The notes beneath the pieces were generated by a model that was given only the letters and a program-made list of their open reading frames with translations, searched no databases and had not been told where the DNA came from. The position numbers were made by a program, and so were the translations under genes. Of a stretch of 61,979 nucleotides of DNA, positions 7,017 through 42,455 are shown one piece after another (position 1 is the first letter of the stretch; each line of letters starts with the position of its first letter). Origin of the DNA: a virus (taxonomy: Duplodnaviria; Caudoviricetes); the IMG/VR virus record IMGVR_UViG_3300027985_000277, positions 1 to 61,979 of that record; one strand, written 5' to 3'.

Positions 7017-8406
7017 GGAACAGGCGTGGGCCATAAATAGGATGGCCTGCGAGGAAACCCGGGCTGCCCTGAACGCCAGCGTGCTGGGAACTGGAAAGAC
7101 GCTCATGGCGGTGGAACTCGCCAAAACCTTGGGTGCAAAAACGGTACTTATCACTGCCCCACTGGGCACCCATAAAGGATGGAAAGCCACACTGGAGCGC
7201 CAGAAGTTCCCCCACCCGGTGAAATTCATCAACAGCACCAATGAAGAATTCATCAATTTGAAGGCTGGTGTTCCCGGTGCCTACTTGGTGGGGCGGGAGT
7301 TCTTCTACCTGTCCGCCACCAACAGCAAGCTTCGTGATGACGGAACCCGGGCTCGCACAGCACGGTGGTCATGGTCCAAAATACCCCATATCGACTTGCA
7401 TATTGTGGATGAGAGCCATTCGGCTCAGAACCAATTCGGAAAAATGTTCTCCACGCTGCGCAAGATGCACAATGTGGGGTACAAGCTGGCAATGTCCGGC
7501 ACACCGCAGGGCAGCAAGTTCGAGGGCATCTGGGCCACCACGAAGTGGTTGTGGCCTGATTTGGTGGACGGTTCCAAGGTACGCTGGGCTGCGCAGTGGT
7601 GCGAGCAGAAGCAGGTGGTGGTCGGATACGACAAGGATGCCGGTGAACTCAAGCGGGTGACTCAGGTTGTGGGGGAGAAGAGACCGGGAGCCTACCTCGC
7701 CAGCCTGCCGTGCGTGGTGCGGCTGGAACTGGAAACCAAGCCCTATGAGTTGTACGAGGCCCGGGTGGACTTGTGCCCTGTGCAGAGGCAGATGTGGGAC
7801 GAGATGGCCGCACATAGCATCGCGTGGTTGGCTGAACGCCCCACCGTGGCGAAACTGCCGCTGGAACAGCGCATCCGGCTACGCCAGATGGCGCTGGGCG
7901 AGGTCAGCTTCGATGACGAGGGGGCAGTAGCCTTCGCGCCGGATTGCCGCAGCACCAAAATAGATGCGGCCCTCAAAATCCAAGCGCGCCACCCCGGAGA
8001 GCCGATCCTGTTCCTGACCGATTCCGAGAGGTTCGCCCGCATCGCTGCGCCGAGGCTGGGAGCGGAACTCTTTACGGGGCGTGTGCCGAAGCGGGTGCGC
8101 AACGAACTGGTGGACCGGTTCGGGGTGGACGTGCCTTACCTGGTGGCGACCTATCAAGCCATCGCGGAGGGCACGGATGGGTTGCAGGCACACTGCCATA
8201 TCGAGGTGCTGTTCAACATCGCGGACAGCCCCGTGCTGAATGAGCAGGTTTCTGGTAGGCTCAACCGTACCGGACAGCGGGCCGACAAGATCGTTCGTTA
8301 CACGTTGGTGGCCCGCAATACCGCCGATGACGACCACTTCGACCGGGCCGTAGCCAACATGGATGCCCGCCGATCCGAGGTTGACAAGTTGCATGTGGAC
8401 CTGTAG
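7000..8406 (+). CDS. SF2 / SNF2-like DNA helicase
   Basis: GTGKT, DESH, SGTP and GRLNR motifs. Confidence 0.9.
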   Translation: MLTPTEEQAWAINRMACEETRAALNASVLGTGKTLMAVELAKTLGAKTVLITAPLGTHKGWKATLERQKFPHPVKFINSTNEEFINLKAGVPGAYLVGREFFYLSATNSKLRDDGTRARTARWSWSKIPHIDLHIVDESHSAQNQFGKMFSTLRKMHNVGYKLAMSGTPQGSKFEGIWATTKWLWPDLVDGSKVRWAAQWCEQKQVVVGYDKDAGELKRVTQVVGEKRPGAYLASLPCVVRLELETKPYELYEARVDLCPVQRQMWDEMAAHSIAWLAERPTVAKLPLEQRIRLRQMALGEVSFDDEGAVAFAPDCRSTKIDAALKIQARHPGEPILFLTDSERFARIAAPRLGAELFTGRVPKRVRNELVDRFGVDVPYLVATYQAIAEGTDGLQAHCHIEVLFNIADSPVLNEQVSGRLNRTGQRADKIVRYTLVARNTADDDHFDRAVANMDARRSEVDKLHVDL

Positions 8407-15599: not shown

Positions 15600-16350
15600 A
15601 ACTAGCCCAGACGAGTTCGATTTGGACTCAGTGTTGTCCAAGTATGTGGTGAAGCCGGTGGCTTCGGCCAAGCCGGAACTGCTCATGTTCTATAGCCCTC
15701 CTGGTTCGGGCAAGACTTGGCTGGCAGCATCTGCCAGCGAACTGCCCGGGGTCAAGAAGGTGCTCTACCTTGACATCGAGGGCTCCACGGTCGGCACACT
15801 GGGGTCGTTCGACCCAAAGAAAATCGACATCATCGAGGTTTACAAGCACCCTGACCCGTTTGCATTCGCCAACACGGTCCTTACCAAACTCGGTGACCCC
15901 GCTGCCAAGCACAGCTACGATGTGGTGGTGATCGACACCTTCGACACCTTGCAGGATCTGTCGATCAAGGCGTTCGACTCCAGCGACGGTTGGGAAATGT
16001 GGCGGGACGTGAAGGACTGGTCAACCGATATCGCCAAGATGCTCAAGCGCATCGCCCCTCTCGGCATCCTTGTGGTGCACGACCGGGAGGAGAAGTCCGA
16101 ATCCGGTGCTGTGGTGGCGCGACTGCGGTTGGCCGGTGCTGCCAAGGACATCCTTCCGGGCATCCCGGACGTGGTGGCCTACCTTGAGCGCAAGATCGAC
16201 AAGGAGGACGGCGAGGTGCATACCTACGCCTACTTCGAGAACTCGAACAAGAAAGTGACGAAGAACAGGTTCGGCTTCCCGCCCATCGTGAAGGACGTGA
16301 CGCTGGTGAACCTGTGGAAGTACATCGACAAGAAGGGAGAAGGTAAGTAA
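15592..16350 (+). CDS. AAA_24 / Sak4-like ATPase (recombinase)
   Basis: YSPPGSGKT, YLDIEG, VVIDT, TKNRF. Confidence 0.85.
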   Translation: MAETSPDEFDLDSVLSKYVVKPVASAKPELLMFYSPPGSGKTWLAASASELPGVKKVLYLDIEGSTVGTLGSFDPKKIDIIEVYKHPDPFAFANTVLTKLGDPAAKHSYDVVVIDTFDTLQDLSIKAFDSSDGWEMWRDVKDWSTDIAKMLKRIAPLGILVVHDREEKSESGAVVARLRLAGAAKDILPGIPDVVAYLERKIDKEDGEVHTYAYFENSNKKVTKNRFGFPPIVKDVTLVNLWKYIDKKGEGK

Positions 16351-16961
16351 TGGCACGTAAGGCCGAAGTAACAGGTGAGGTTTCAACCGAGGTTGGAGGT
16401 GCCTTCAAGCCGCTCCCTGCGGGACGCTACGAGGTGACCATCTTCGGGGTGGAGGAAGGCAAGTACAAGAACGGAGCCAACAAGGGCCGTCCCAACATCA
16501 ACGTCCAATACCGGATCAGCGAGGGTCAGAAGGGCACCAACCGGCGCGTCTTCCAGTTGATCCCGCTGTTCACCAACTGGGGTGGACCCGACAAGAAAGA
16601 TGCGTTCAGCTTCTTCCAGTTCTTCTCTGTTGTGCAGGGCATGTCGGAGAAGGACTTCCGGATCGCAGTGAAAGAGGACGGCGCAGCCGACAACCTTCCT
16701 GACGACGACGACCTCCTGGGCATGGAGTTGACTATCACCCTCAAGGTGGAGGACGACGAATACCATTTCGAGGAAGCCAAGAAGAAGTGGGAAGCCGAAG
16801 GCAGCAAGGGTGAGCCCCCCGTACAGGCGGACTACCAGCGCAACAGCGTCCAGAGCGTAAGCCCTGCGGGCAACGGCAACATGGACAAGGACTCCGACGA
16901 TGAGCCCTCCAGTGGCGGTGGCAGCACCAAGCGCTCGAAGGCTACGGTTCTTGACCTGTAG
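16350..16961 (+). CDS. Single-stranded DNA-binding protein (DUF669-like)
   Basis: FKPLPAGRYEVTI N-terminus, acidic tail, follows Sak4-like gene. Confidence 0.7.
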   Translation: MARKAEVTGEVSTEVGGAFKPLPAGRYEVTIFGVEEGKYKNGANKGRPNINVQYRISEGQKGTNRRVFQLIPLFTNWGGPDKKDAFSFFQFFSVVQGMSEKDFRIAVKEDGAADNLPDDDDLLGMELTITLKVEDDEYHFEEAKKKWEAEGSKGEPPVQADYQRNSVQSVSPAGNGNMDKDSDDEPSSGGGSTKRSKATVLDL

Positions 16962-16979
16962 AACGTAGTGGTGTAAGGT
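16951..16979 (+). promoter_or_regulatory. SigA-type promoter TTGACC-N17-TAAGGT driving the ncRNA cluster
   Basis: Spacing fits; first RNA helix starts ~7 nt downstream. Confidence 0.65.
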
Positions 16980-16985
16980 AGTTCC

Positions 16986-17354
16986 TGTTGTAAGGGGCGA
17001 GCGCCACGGGCCCTTAGCCCTGACAACTTCATAGAGCAACACAGACCTGATCAGTCTGTGGAGGGTGGCTGAACATCGCGGGACTGCCAGTTCTGCGGCG
17101 AAAGGCGCAACTGGGGCTTAGCGGCCCTACCTTAGCGGGTGTAACAGTTGGCGGGCTCAAAAGGGGTACTCACTAGAGCGCACTGGCTTGGCCTTGGCGG
17201 TAAAACCCAATCCGCCCCCTCGCCCGACTCGGGCACTCCGTACAGGGGTCGTTCTAGTTCCGAGCAGCGCGGACAATGCGTGAGTCCGACGCAACAATAT
17301 ACGCGGTAAAGGTAGGGACCGCGCCCAAGCCCGCCTGACAGCCGGAAAGACGGC
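16986..17354 (+). ncRNA. Large structured ncRNA A (unassigned)
   Basis: No credible CDS; many helices and two loop-mediated long-range pairings. Confidence 0.6.
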
Positions 17355-17360
17355 GGTTCC

Positions 17361-17439
17361 GGGCCTTAATAGGTTTCGACGGTTGCTAACGCCCCACGAG
17401 GGACACAACCGGAAGCGAGTTCGATTCTCGCAAGGTCCA
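17361..17439 (+). ncRNA. tmRNA-like RNA consisting only of the tRNA-like domain
   Basis: GGGCCTT/AAGGTCC acceptor with G3-U70, GGTTTCGAC D-loop motif, GGTTG/CAACC P2, T-arm GCGAG-TTCGATT-CTCGC, discriminator A. Confidence 0.8.
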
Positions 17440-17444
17440 CGAGC

Positions 17445-17710
17445 AACTGTGAGTCGTGCTTGCGAGGTGGCACCTTCGAACTCTGACTCTCTGTGGGGTC
17501 TGGACCACACATCACCCAGACTGGCCGTAGACAGCTACTACGAGATGCTGTTAGCCACAGCAGGGTGTCCCCTAGTACCGGTGGGGCAGGCGCTTCGAGT
17601 GCGCAGCACCTACGATGGGCCCCTCTGGCGGAGGGTTTGGCGGTTCGGTTACGCCCATCTAAGCCCGGACACCCGGCCCGTCTGTGCCGCCAGCACCTGG
17701 GGCCGGGATT
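17445..17710 (+). ncRNA. Large structured ncRNA B (unassigned)
   Basis: GGGTGTCC/GGACACCC multibranch, 7-bp loop-loop complement, T-run at 3' end. Confidence 0.6.
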
Positions 17711-17713
17711 TTT

Positions 17714-17784
17714 GCCCCCTTACCACAGTGGCAGTGGACCCGACTTGTAATCGGTTTACATGTGTTCGATTCACATAGGGGGCT
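17714..17784 (+). tRNA. tRNA-Thr(TGT)
   Basis: GCCCCCT/AGGGGGC acceptor, CCAC/GTGG D-stem, loop CTTGTAA, T-arm ATGTG-TTCGATT-CACAT; no CCA. Confidence 0.9.
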
Positions 17785-17789
17785 CGTGG

Positions 17790-17966
17790 ATAGTGAGTTC
17801 TGCTGCATGAGGGACGACCACTGAAACGGTAAGCGATGCAGTGGTGAGAGTTGGTCTGCGTCCGGACAGCCCGCAACCTATTGCGGGGTAATAAACGGCG
17901 CGGGGTATGGGGCTCTCCGATCACAGCCCCGGTGGCGGGACGCCGCACGAGAGTACTAGTCTCTCG
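17790..17966 (+). ncRNA. Structured ncRNA C (unassigned)
   Basis: Series of hairpins; no credible CDS. Confidence 0.45.
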
Positions 17967-18021
17967 GCTGTGTGTTACGTTTTAGGCGTACATTGGAAGG
18001 GTTCGAGTCCTCAGCACAGCA
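17967..18021 (+). ncRNA. Truncated tRNA-like element
   Basis: GCTGTGT/GCACAGC stem, TTCGAGT T-loop, only one other arm. Confidence 0.4.
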
Positions 18022-18051
18022 CTCACAACCGTACGAGGAGAGGAGTTCGTT

Positions 18052-20190
18052 TTGCAGGAGTTCTTCTCCGCGATTTACGGCGATGCGTCAGGGTGGGTTG
18101 ATATTGTCAACCGGGACCAAGATACCGGAAAGATCGACTCTGAGATGTGGCGTGAATGGCCCCGTTCAGTAGCCTACCTCGCCAAGTATTGCGGGCTCCG
18201 ACAAGACGAAGACACTTACTGCTCCGTGGCGCTGTTCACCGATAAGCTGCGCACCAAGGACGACACAAAGGCCATTGCCAATGCTGTGTGGGCCGATGCC
18301 GACACCTGTGACCCCCAGAACTTCCGCGCCACTCCCTCCATCATCGTCAATACCTCCCCGGGGCGTTGGCACTGCTGGTGGGTGTTGGACGCCCCTGTGC
18401 CCGCCGCAGACGCTTCCCTCACTAGTCAGAAAATCGCCTACGCTCACCGTGAGCAAGGCTGTGATCTGGGGTGGGCTGTCAGCAAGATCCTGCGGGTGCC
18501 CGGCACAACCAACACCAAGGACGGCCAGAACTTCTTGGTCACCGCAGAGTACACAGGAGTGCTCTACACCCTTGAGGAACTGAACGCCCTCTACACTGAC
18601 GTAGAGGCTCAGGCCCCGGTAGCGCTGACCGATGCGATGCCTGAATTGCTGACGCTTTCAGAGCGCATCGCCTTGGAGAAGCGGGTCATCGAGAACAGCC
18701 CGTTTGAGAATCTGTATCTGACGCCCCCCGAAGCCGGAGCGGACTGGTCCCAGAAACTGTTCCGACTCCAGTTTGACCTGTTCCGGGATGGGTGTACTCC
18801 CCAAGAGGTTTTCACGCTTAGCAAGCATTCGGCCTGTAACAAGTTCGCCCGGGACAACCGACCAGACTCTGACCTCTGGAAGACCGTACAGAATGCATAT
18901 CATAAGTACGAATCGGAGGAAGCACCTATTGCTGTGCGGGTAGAGGCCCGCAAAACCTACACGATTCCTGAGTTTGTGACTGATGACGAACGAAAATCTG
19001 CAACCGGAGGGTTTCCCGACACCTACACCAAGTGGGTGGCACAGCGGTCGGACGCGGCACAGACCTACAACTACAGCCTCGCCTACATGCTGCTGTCGTG
19101 CGTGTTCGGAGATCGGGGCTACATCCCGGACAAGTTCGGAATGCGTCGATTGAACCTGTGGCTACTGCTGCTGGGGGACACCACCCGCACCCGTAAGTCC
19201 ACCGCCAAGTCACTGTTCCTGCGTGTACTGCACGGGTATGAGACGGCTGCTTTGAATGGCGGCAAGATCGACATCGGCTCTGATGTCACCAAGGAAGGCC
19301 TGGGCAAGGTGCTCGGAGAACGTGATGGGCTGGTGTCCCTGATGCAGACCGACGAAGTGAACGGCATGTTCCGGGAGATGTACGGCAAGAACTACCAGAT
19401 CGGAACGCTGTCCTACTTCACTGACCTGTACGAGGGATTTGTGCCGGTGGTGCTTCGGGCAGCCAAGGATGCCGGGCAGACCAATCGGGCTCGGACAACG
19501 TTCAACATGCTGGGCGTGGGCATTCGGGAGCATGTGGCCCAGACCCTGACCAAAGAGGATTTTGAGTCCGGCTTTCTGGTTCGCATGTTGTGGTCGGTGG
19601 CCGACCCCGGGCCACGTCAGAAGGGTTCGGACAATTGGATCGACGCGATGGAGGCAGCCTCGGATGAGGCGGACGTGGCCCGCATCGTTTTGGACCTCAA
19701 GCGCAGAGCGAACAAGTTCGTGCCCGAGGCACCCTCTGCAATCAAGATTTCGGACTCAGCCAAGATCCGCTACAACGAGTGGGCTGAACTGGTGCGCAAG
19801 CACAGTGAGGAGTACGGAGACTCCGCATTGGAGGCCAGCATTGATCGCTTCCAGCACAGCATTCGGAAAGCAGCAGCCCTGCTTGCCATGTACGATGGTG
19901 TAGAAGTGATCGAGTTGAAGCACCTGCTCCCTGCTCTGGTGCAAGCTGAGCGTTGGTATGGGGACATGCTTCGGATGTTGAACGAGGTATCTTCCTCGGA
20001 TTTCGAGCGGTTGCTGAATGAGGTGGAGGCTTTCATCTCTCAAGGCACAAATGGTGAACGACAGGACGCAGCGGTGAAGCGCAAGTTCGCTCGTCTCAAG
20101 CCACAGGAGATTGGAGATGCTTTGACATCATTGAAAGCGCAGGGACGCATTCGCAACAACGGACAGTCGATTTGGCAGGTGCTGGCGTGA
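18052..20190 (+). CDS. DNA primase-helicase (RepB-like primase N-term, DUF3987-like ATPase C-term)
   Basis: WADAD, TSPGRWHCWW, LRVPGTTNTK; GDTTRTRKST, TDE, SGFLVR; GAGGAG RBS before TTG. Confidence 0.85.
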   Translation: MQEFFSAIYGDASGWVDIVNRDQDTGKIDSEMWREWPRSVAYLAKYCGLRQDEDTYCSVALFTDKLRTKDDTKAIANAVWADADTCDPQNFRATPSIIVNTSPGRWHCWWVLDAPVPAADASLTSQKIAYAHREQGCDLGWAVSKILRVPGTTNTKDGQNFLVTAEYTGVLYTLEELNALYTDVEAQAPVALTDAMPELLTLSERIALEKRVIENSPFENLYLTPPEAGADWSQKLFRLQFDLFRDGCTPQEVFTLSKHSACNKFARDNRPDSDLWKTVQNAYHKYESEEAPIAVRVEARKTYTIPEFVTDDERKSATGGFPDTYTKWVAQRSDAAQTYNYSLAYMLLSCVFGDRGYIPDKFGMRRLNLWLLLLGDTTRTRKSTAKSLFLRVLHGYETAALNGGKIDIGSDVTKEGLGKVLGERDGLVSLMQTDEVNGMFREMYGKNYQIGTLSYFTDLYEGFVPVVLRAAKDAGQTNRARTTFNMLGVGIREHVAQTLTKEDFESGFLVRMLWSVADPGPRQKGSDNWIDAMEAASDEADVARIVLDLKRRANKFVPEAPSAIKISDSAKIRYNEWAELVRKHSEEYGDSALEASIDRFQHSIRKAAALLAMYDGVEVIELKHLLPALVQAERWYGDMLRMLNEVSSSDFERLLNEVEAFISQGTNGERQDAAVKRKFARLKPQEIGDALTSLKAQGRIRNNGQSIWQVLA

Positions 20191-42364: not shown

Positions 42365-42371
42365 AAAACAG

Positions 42372-42455
42372 GAGCGGGGGTTGGACTCGAACCAACGACT
42401 ATTGCTCTCCGGTTTGAAGGGTGCCCGCACGCTCTGCCCGCTGAGCTACCCCGCT
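42372..42455 (-). tRNA. tRNA-like RNA with non-canonical anticodon arm
   Basis: Perfect acceptor, D- and T-arms; anticodon region enlarged and containing CTTCAAA. Confidence 0.6.

Follow-up and report, generated by a model that had tools for sequence, protein, structure and literature searches.

What does the stretch from 17445 to 17710 of this phage genome encode, and is it the single 266-nt multibranch RNA that had been predicted from its letters? The window, by which we mean the whole stretch of DNA that was analysed, is a complete virus genome of 61,979 bp with direct terminal repeats. The sequence in question, here called ncRNA B, lies in a gene-free island of 1.09 kb (16962-18051), bordered on the 5' side by a DUF669 gene (16350-16961, + strand) and on the 3' side by a DUF3987/RepB-type primase gene (18052-20190, + strand). 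Two more + strand genes are an AAA_24 gene upstream of the island and, downstream of it, one for a family A DNA polymerase. Within the island follow, in order, a manA-like RNA, a mini-tmRNA, the ncRNA B stretch, a tRNA-Thr(UGU) and then 266 nt with a terminal tRNA-like element. The tRNA-Thr (17714-17785, + strand, anticodon tgt) was called by ARAGORN and scores 60.2 bits with the Rfam tRNA model, and its CCA is not encoded. Both flanks named in the original prediction, the mini-tmRNA and the tRNA-Thr, are real and share the strand of the genes. Phages of this primase family often carry tRNAs in the slot ahead of it, a hot spot with tRNAs in 25 of the 60 related viral loci scanned.

All 16 sequence motifs of the prediction occur exactly where it had placed them, on the + strand. 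They comprise the strands of a proposed 8-bp enclosing helix, GGGTGTCC (17563-70) and GGACACCC (17667-74); GATGGGC at 17614 with GCCCATC at 17653; CCCTC at 17621 with GAGGG at 17631; the loop words CTGGCGG at 17625 and CCGCCAG at 17687; CCGGCCC at 17673 with GGGCCGG at 17700; and three upstream hairpins, GAGTC at 17451 with GACTC at 17485, GTCTGG at 17498 with CCAGAC at 17516, and TGCTGT at 17546 with ACAGCA at 17557. On single-sequence statistics, however, these motifs are at chance level. Exact inverted repeats of k=7 number 6 in 17445-17710, whereas 1000 dinucleotide shuffles have 3.3 +/- 2.4 and a fraction of 0.16 of them reach 6 or more; those of k=8 number 2 versus 0.9 (fraction 0.23). 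The fold of 269 nt has an MFE z of -0.09 on the + strand, where 89 of 200 shuffles are as good, and of -0.65 on the - strand. By part, z is +1.17 for 17445-17611, which folds worse than its shuffles, and -0.46 for 17612-17713. The MFE structure of the 3' 102 nt nonetheless reproduces the helices P1 and P2 and the 3' arm as they had been drawn.

Support beyond chance exists for the 3' 100 nt only, and it comes from a single comparison. The only homolog found lies in L161, a contig from a distant phage that shares 35% primase identity with the window. An nhmmer search aligned window positions 17615-17711 with L161 2663-2762 (E 1.2e-7), and a covariance model of the module, R1, scores 120.8 bits in the window and 117.3 bits at L161 2660-2762. 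Of 99 aligned bases, 72 are identical between the copies and 27 are substituted; there are also indels of 1 and 3 nt. Since the rest of the two islands is unalignable, the module is selectively conserved. Taking the nhmmer match, model R1 and the compensatory pairs together, we place this conserved structured module at 17612-17712 on the + strand, which is also that of the genes on either side. Only when read on this strand does the module contain G.U pairs (U17645.G17668 in the window, U2727.G2750 in L161). The MFE z of the module is unremarkable in both phages, being -1.92 in L161.

The fold is compact. P1 (7 bp, 17614-20 / 17653-59; L161 2663-68 / 2701-06), which is recovered by MFE, encloses P2 together with a conserved unpaired stretch at 17636-52 (GUUUGGCGGUUCGGUUAC); in L161, six of its pairs are invariant and one is changed on both sides. 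P1 stacks directly on P2 (4-5 bp), a CCCTC/GAGGG hairpin with the loop UGGCG (17621-25 / 17631-35; L161 2669-73 / 2679-83), the second pair of which has undergone a C-G to G-C double change. The P3 arm (17672-17707) is a GC-rich interrupted hairpin in the MFE structure. Its outer stem, CCCGGCCC/GGGCCGGG (17672-79 / 17700-07; L161 2720-27 / 2750-57), has 8 bp, all G/C, and is kept in L161 with a 1-nt slip of the alignment register that accounts for three unpaired cells, the only ones in the comparison. The inner stem GTG/CAC (17684-86 / 17694-96; L161 2734-36 / 2744-46) shows a G-C to C-G double change. P1, P2 and the 3' arm of the original prediction are therefore all retained in L161. A further helix, P4, GUUCGG/CCGGAC (17643-48 / 17665-70), forms 6 of 6 pairs in both sequences, with a U.G to U-A change in L161, and would cross P1 as a pseudoknot or an alternative conformer; because it was defined only once both sequences were known, we treat it as tentative. 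Outside the helices, the 17-nt stretch at 17636-52 and a 12-nt linker (17660-71) are strongly conserved and unpaired. One base past P3, a U-run TTTTT (17709-17713, within A-TTTTT at 17708-13) abuts the tRNA-Thr, and its counterpart in L161 is TCTTTT (2758-63). All these elements are on the + strand.

A lack of conservation of the loop-loop complement had been named as one result that would refute the original prediction, and on this point the comparison favours the prediction. The words CTGGCGG (17625-31, + strand) and CCGCCAG (17687-93), with counterparts at L161 2673-79 and 2737-43, both lie at hairpin tips in the MFE structure. The first takes in the closing C-G pair of P2. Five bases of the P2 apical loop can pair with that of P3, a number that rises to seven if the two closing C-G pairs open. 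In L161, CUGGCGG/CCGCCAG has become CUAGCGG/CCGCUAG, so that one pair has changed from G-C to A-U and all 7 can still form, albeit in one relative only. The native duplexes have calculated energies of -12.5 and -10.5 kcal/mol, respectively. Crossing the loops gives -6.0 kcal/mol for L161 loop A with window loop B, and -10.2 kcal/mol, with a G.U pair, for window loop A with L161 loop B.

Across the 29 pairs counted, four have both partners substituted; P1, P2, the loop-loop helix and inner P3 each contain one of them. All six slide controls gave none. When 27 substitutions were placed at random, the probability of at least four compensatory changes was 0.0017 and that of no broken pair among the 20 tested was 1.1e-4, or about 2e-5 for both criteria jointly. 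For the loop-loop helix alone, the probability that all seven pairs are kept is 0.049, and that they are kept with at least one compensatory change 0.017. In a control of 500 shuffles, the observed covariation was reached in 32. P1, P2 and the loop complement had been predicted from the window before L161 was known, and inner P3 and P4 were defined afterwards. These numbers come from two independent module sequences, and covariation of this kind is blind to whether pairing is intramolecular or intermolecular.

The comparison does not extend to the rest of the prediction. It gives no support to a single multibranch RNA of 266 nt, and its reach ends with the 3' 100 nt. While the covariation bears out the helices and loop-loop words of the 3' module, it does not do so for the 8-bp enclosing helix, which lacks a counterpart in L161, where the best upstream window pairs at 7 of 10 positions. 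The 3' strand of that helix, GGACACCC, overlaps both P4 and P3; as it shares 17673-74 with CCGGCCC (17673-79), both helices cannot fully form, and the enclosing helix also competes with the conserved alternative GUUCGG (17643-48) / CCGGAC (17665-70). The 5' part (17440-17611, + strand), which holds the 5' strand of the enclosing helix and the three upstream hairpins, is without support: these 170 nt have no nhmmer match among 160 loci and fold worse than random. Near-identical environmental contigs carry two changes here (17532 C>T and 17581 G>A). In all probability this 5' part is spacer, or else lineage-specific sequence. The observation that opened this study is thus partly confirmed, and its interpretation is partly supported.

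As for what kind of sequence the module is, a protein-coding role was considered and rejected. The 1-nt and 3-nt indels relative to L161 break the frame, and four overlapping ORFs have no Pfam or PHROG match, which together indicate that the stretch is non-coding. It was likewise rejected as the coding piece of a tmRNA, given that ARAGORN finds no tmRNA in the window, no tmRNA-clan model matches within 17445-17710, and the adjoining tRNA-like domain is closed on itself. An Rfam scan had been proposed as a check, and it returned no family over 17445-17710. At gathering thresholds, Rfam 15 finds five tRNAs only in the window, and at E<=10 across 16900-18100 the only match near ncRNA B is a 9.3-bit noise match to MIAT_exon5_3 touching 17370-17544. 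None of the GOLLD, ROOL and manA covariance models matches over ncRNA B, the manA match being confined to 17041-17226. On L161, Rfam gives nothing at E<=1, hence neither a tRNA-like domain nor manA.

The 5' neighbour (17361-17439, + strand), found by nhmmer and RNAalifold comparison, consists of the tRNA-like domain (TLD) of a tmRNA only. It has an acceptor GGGCCTT/AAGGTCC with a G3:U70 pair, a T-arm GCGAG-TTCGATT-CTCGC and a discriminator A; CCA is not encoded, and CGA comes next. It matches L083 (E 2.7e-6) and L082 (E 5.6e-4) by nhmmer. The Rfam tmRNA model RF00023 scores the copies in L009 and L082 at 61.4 and 52.4 bits (gathering 47), with the whole mRNA-like part deleted in both, and the window copy itself is called by neither Rfam nor ARAGORN. 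RNAalifold of four TLD sequences yields the acceptor, a P2 of their own and the T-arm, with 19 pairs, 9 of them with compensatory change. The mini-tmRNA is genuine, judging from its alignment with tRNA-like domains of three other phage loci, of which two exceed the Rfam threshold. These four copies (window 17361-17439, L009 2519-2599, L082 1817-1898 and L083 about 2063-2141) form a phage family with a TLD and a capped P2 that is without a tag reading frame, and none of them encodes CCA. In L082, ARAGORN also calls a 432-nt tmRNA (1465-1896, tag AEQDQQRAGGG*) that overruns an upstream protein gene; this looks like an artefact, as Rfam detects there only the 82-nt tRNA-like domain at 1817-1898. 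A TLD-only tmRNA has been described in mycobacteriophage DS6A, with the suggestion that a molecule of this kind could inhibit tmRNA through SmpB titration (PMC4131195). In our window it is the mini-tmRNA, not ncRNA B, that is reduced to the tRNA-like domain in this way, and it is a gene apart from the module. The two co-occur in one of the two module loci: L161 has the module without a detectable TLD, and L009, L082 and L083 have the TLD without the module. A tie between module and mini-tmRNA is therefore not suggested by their occurrence in these sequences.

The remainder of the island also holds RNA-like elements. The manA-like RNA (17041-17226) matches RF01745 with 48.4 bits (E 4.4e-11), which is under the gathering score of 55.2. 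Its host phage has 58-60% G+C and comes from vent and sludge samples, not from the marine cyanophage setting described for manA. The one true RNA library, X20, yielded a single contig of 232 nt spanning the manA-like region at 17074-17294 with 9 differences and one insertion; lying outside ncRNA B, it is uninformative on ncRNA B expression. A contig in another run, X8, shares just the 33-nt manA-like core (17113-17145), embedded in other sequence. Near the 3' end of the island, a tRNA-like element lacking a D-arm is conserved between the window (17967-18023) and L082 (2076-2133), with an acceptor GCTGTG/CACAGC and a T-arm GGG-TTCGAGT-CC; it is called by neither ARAGORN nor Rfam. Its window copy carries a 4-bp stem with the loop TTTTAGG at the position of the anticodon arm. 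L082 further has, in an island of like kind, a weak match to YrlA, a Y RNA-like RNA (2530-2589, 24.3 bits, E 0.31). Elsewhere in the window, a second tRNA cluster with tRNA-Pro, Met and Leu includes an 85-nt tRNA (42371-42455, - strand, Rfam 43.1 bits) typed Gly(ACC) by ARAGORN, whose length and anticodon are odd for tRNA-Gly.

Another sequence lies just ahead of the mini-tmRNA. Motif A (17335-17354, + strand, CTGACAGCCGGAAAGACGGC) contains a 19-nt word, TGACAGCCGGAAAGACGGC, with a hairpin GCCG-GAAAGA-CGGC after UGACA. It occurs upstream of the module in both module loci (L161 2494-2513 and 2418-2433) and in none of 165 other loci. The motif is nonetheless widespread in phages: viral contigs contain its exact 18-mer at least 113 times, it also occurs in phages of Vibrio, Xanthomonas and Oceanospirillum, and it is intergenic in both cases inspected. 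Among the matches listed, the flanks fall into 94 different contexts and show neither conservation nor pairing beyond the word, and the motif stands 4-10 nt ahead of a tRNA in 4 of 113 loci. It has no Rfam match, and its sequence was not found in the literature searched. We considered and dropped the idea that motif A and the module delimit one general RNA unit: terminator-like sites are not enriched downstream (6 of 92) versus upstream (4 of 89) of the motif, and the module was present in no motif-A locus examined. Motif A may merit separate study.

How widely does the module occur? Scoring of 7999 candidates gave 169 primase homologs at E<=0.001, and 80 viral and 80 metagenome loci were compared; the closest of these 160 have primases 57%, 52% and 48% identical to that of the window. 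When the island was searched by nhmmer, both whole and as five segments, first in 80 and then in 160 loci, ncRNA B matched L161 alone, and an HMM of the two sequences found nothing further. Model R1 found no copy in the 159 other primase loci, in the closest relatives of L161 (L166 and L167) or in 119 further loci, that is, in 280 other loci overall. The one match in the last set (12.2 bits, E 0.64, in L271) was disregarded, and the next best match in the window, 17.6 bits at 8237-8321, is within an ORF. A blastn search of 16900-18100 against the phage GenBank collection gave no match, and a single-protein locus search of viral contigs no further module copy. Three pattern scans of the viral contigs returned 0, 4 and 0 matches, the four being chance by inspection, and a pattern scan of species-representative genomes returned none; in the latter collection a primase alignment matched 17 stretches, none of them a relative. 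Among the public sequencing runs listed, 20 of 24 hold part of the island, with near-identical copies in sludge and wastewater metagenomes. Four runs were compared with the island. In the DNA contigs, X3 (17133-17690) and X5 (17515-17720), the module is unchanged and two changes fall in the 5' part; being near-identical to the window, these contigs add no covariation.

The module is missing from L166 and L167, although their primases are 72% identical to that of L161, and protein genes occupy the slot. It is missing as well from L082 and L083, whose primases are 57% and 52% identical to the window's. Kept between very distant phages and missing from nearer ones, the module behaves, as far as these genomes can tell, as an accessory and horizontally exchanged RNA domain and not as a core replication signal.

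We put at about an even chance the explanation we prefer, namely that 17612-17712 is an autonomous, conserved and compact RNA domain of the accessory island, which would serve as a stable small RNA acting in trans. The island would be transcribed together with the replication genes; no sigma-70-like promoter was found in 16500-18500. Processing of the tRNA type would then free the pieces, with one cut just 3' of 17439, the discriminator of the mini-tmRNA, and another by RNase P at 17713|17714. Whether generated by RNase P or by termination at the U-run, the 3' end would be identical, a hairpin followed by U5 as is usual for stable bacterial small RNAs. It is this 3' end, present in both phages and the same by either route, that favours a stable small RNA domain. 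In L161 no tRNA follows the module, so RNase P could not generate the end there; in the window, efficient termination at the U-run would mean that the tRNA-Thr, one base downstream, needs read-through. The loop-loop helix would lock the fold, joining both halves of the module within one molecule or between copies. Rough geometry suggests that the 12-nt linker would barely reach along P1, P2, the kissing helix and P3 if these were stacked straight, at about 29 bp, so that the intramolecular form is not assured. Once freed, the domain may act in trans through its conserved unpaired segments (17636-52 and 17660-71), which could bind a host or phage factor, and its role would be that of an accessory RNA like the adjoining tRNAs, mini-tmRNA and manA-like RNA.

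The same 3' hairpin can be read in another way. P3 and the U-run could form an intrinsic terminator ahead of the tRNA-Thr and the primase and polymerase genes, and hence a cis-acting attenuator, in which P1, P2 and the unpaired bases would sense a ligand or protein and docking of the loop onto the terminator loop would tune read-through. The arm does have the makings of a terminator, being a GC-rich hairpin with an 8-bp outer and a 3-4 bp inner stem (MFE) and a U-run 3' of the stem; in both phages the module precedes the primase gene and shares its strand, its unpaired segments are near-invariant, the alternative pairing of P4 versus P1 would suit a switch, and kissing loops between aptamer and expression platform are known in cobalamin riboswitches. 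Yet P3 is not among the sites of a consensus terminator scan (uninterrupted stem, loop 3-8 nt) because its stem is interrupted by a 4x3 internal loop, and no Rfam riboswitch matches at E<=10. Moreover, the terminator stem could form whether or not the loops pair, which leaves no evident on/off logic, and the absence of the module from L166, L167, L082 and L083 argues against a core regulator of the primase gene. We therefore consider attenuation unlikely. Proximity to the primase and DNA polymerase A genes could also point to an element that works as DNA, an origin or priming signal with hairpins in the single-stranded + strand, where stem covariation would also be expected. However, close primase relatives lack it, it sits among co-oriented RNA genes, and neither the U-run nor the loop-loop complement has an evident role in DNA, all of which makes this highly improbable.

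There are two further explanations. The stretch might have no function, being a spacer between RNA genes with chance hairpins, and the match in L161 a remnant of a horizontally moved segment. This would fit the chance-level statistics of the single sequence, the restriction to two lineages, and the failure to find another copy among 280 further loci or by four scans of sequence collections. But 27 substitutions in 99 columns have left 20 of 20 tested pairs intact, four of them compensated (p ~2e-5), and the conservation is selective for the module between flanks that do not align; we regard a functionless spacer as very unlikely. The loops might, on the other hand, pair between molecules and build dimers, rings or larger assemblies like those of phi29 pRNA or of ROOL, GOLLD and manA. 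The loop words covary and, on a single strand, complement each other exactly, and the 12-nt linker seems short for an intramolecular coaxial stack. A manA-like RNA lies in the same island, and manA forms multimers (10.64898/2026.07.01.735769); the kissing loop of ROOL is quaternary, and ROOL and GOLLD occur near tRNA islands (10.1101/2024.12.08.627333). Nevertheless, covariation cannot tell the two modes of pairing apart, and the module, besides being small, is unrelated in sequence to the cage RNA families, so self-assembly strikes us as distinctly unlikely.

If we return to the stable small RNA domain, or more generally to a conserved module whatever its mode of action, the comparison supports a new candidate motif of 100 nt, pseudoknotted or with a kissing loop, that belongs to no known family and has one distant homolog. 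Because it is known from two lineages only, its present weight is modest. More and more structured RNAs are coming to light in phage tRNA islands, ROOL, GOLLD and manA having lately been found to form cages, and the island described here is unusually rich, the module standing beside a manA-like RNA and a TLD-only tmRNA. A compact domain of 100 nt would be a tractable system in which to ask how such an RNA benefits the phage and whether its loops pair within or between molecules. It would be a long shot, but the module could assemble hand in hand and be one of several RNA-only devices of a single island, together with the manA-like cage RNA, the TLD-only mini-tmRNA and the tRNA-like element without a D-arm, deployed against host translation or RNA quality control.

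Several known systems resemble the module in part. RNA C and RNA D of phage T4 are small RNAs of unknown function beside tRNA genes; they lie in a tRNA cluster and are made by tRNA-type processing. The likeness is one of description; in the present case conservation is limited to 100 nt, which include a loop-loop complement. In phi29 pRNA, two mutually complementary loops pair between copies, but the module has no Rfam pRNA match and is not near packaging genes; compared with both the T4 RNAs and pRNA, it is known from its sequence alone. RNA I and RNA II of ColE1 form kissing hairpins with fully complementary 7-nt loops, yet these partners are antisense transcripts of one locus, whereas the loops of the module are on the same strand, 62 nt apart. 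In the L5-L13 interaction of the cobalamin riboswitch, the loop of a sensor hairpin docks on that of a downstream regulatory hairpin; the module has no Rfam match to it, and its candidate sensor would be tiny.

The closest parallels in setting are ROOL, GOLLD and manA, which two preprints describe as phage-borne structured RNAs, often near tRNA islands and built with kissing loops (10.1101/2024.12.08.627333; 10.64898/2026.07.01.735769). All three assemble through contacts of the kissing-loop type, and manA RNAs form cages as 8-, 10- and 60-mers (bioRxiv 10.64898/2026.07.01.735769); ROOL and GOLLD lie near phage tRNA islands, and a covarying kissing loop of ROOL that was first read as tertiary proved to be quaternary (10.1101/2024.12.08.627333). 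At 100 nt versus about 190 to over 800, and without an Rfam match, the module is far smaller than any of them. Nevertheless, ncRNA B shares their situation in a phage near tRNA genes, with the tRNA-Thr and the mini-tmRNA as its flanks, and it has in common with GOLLD a conserved 3' region joined to a variable 5' region.
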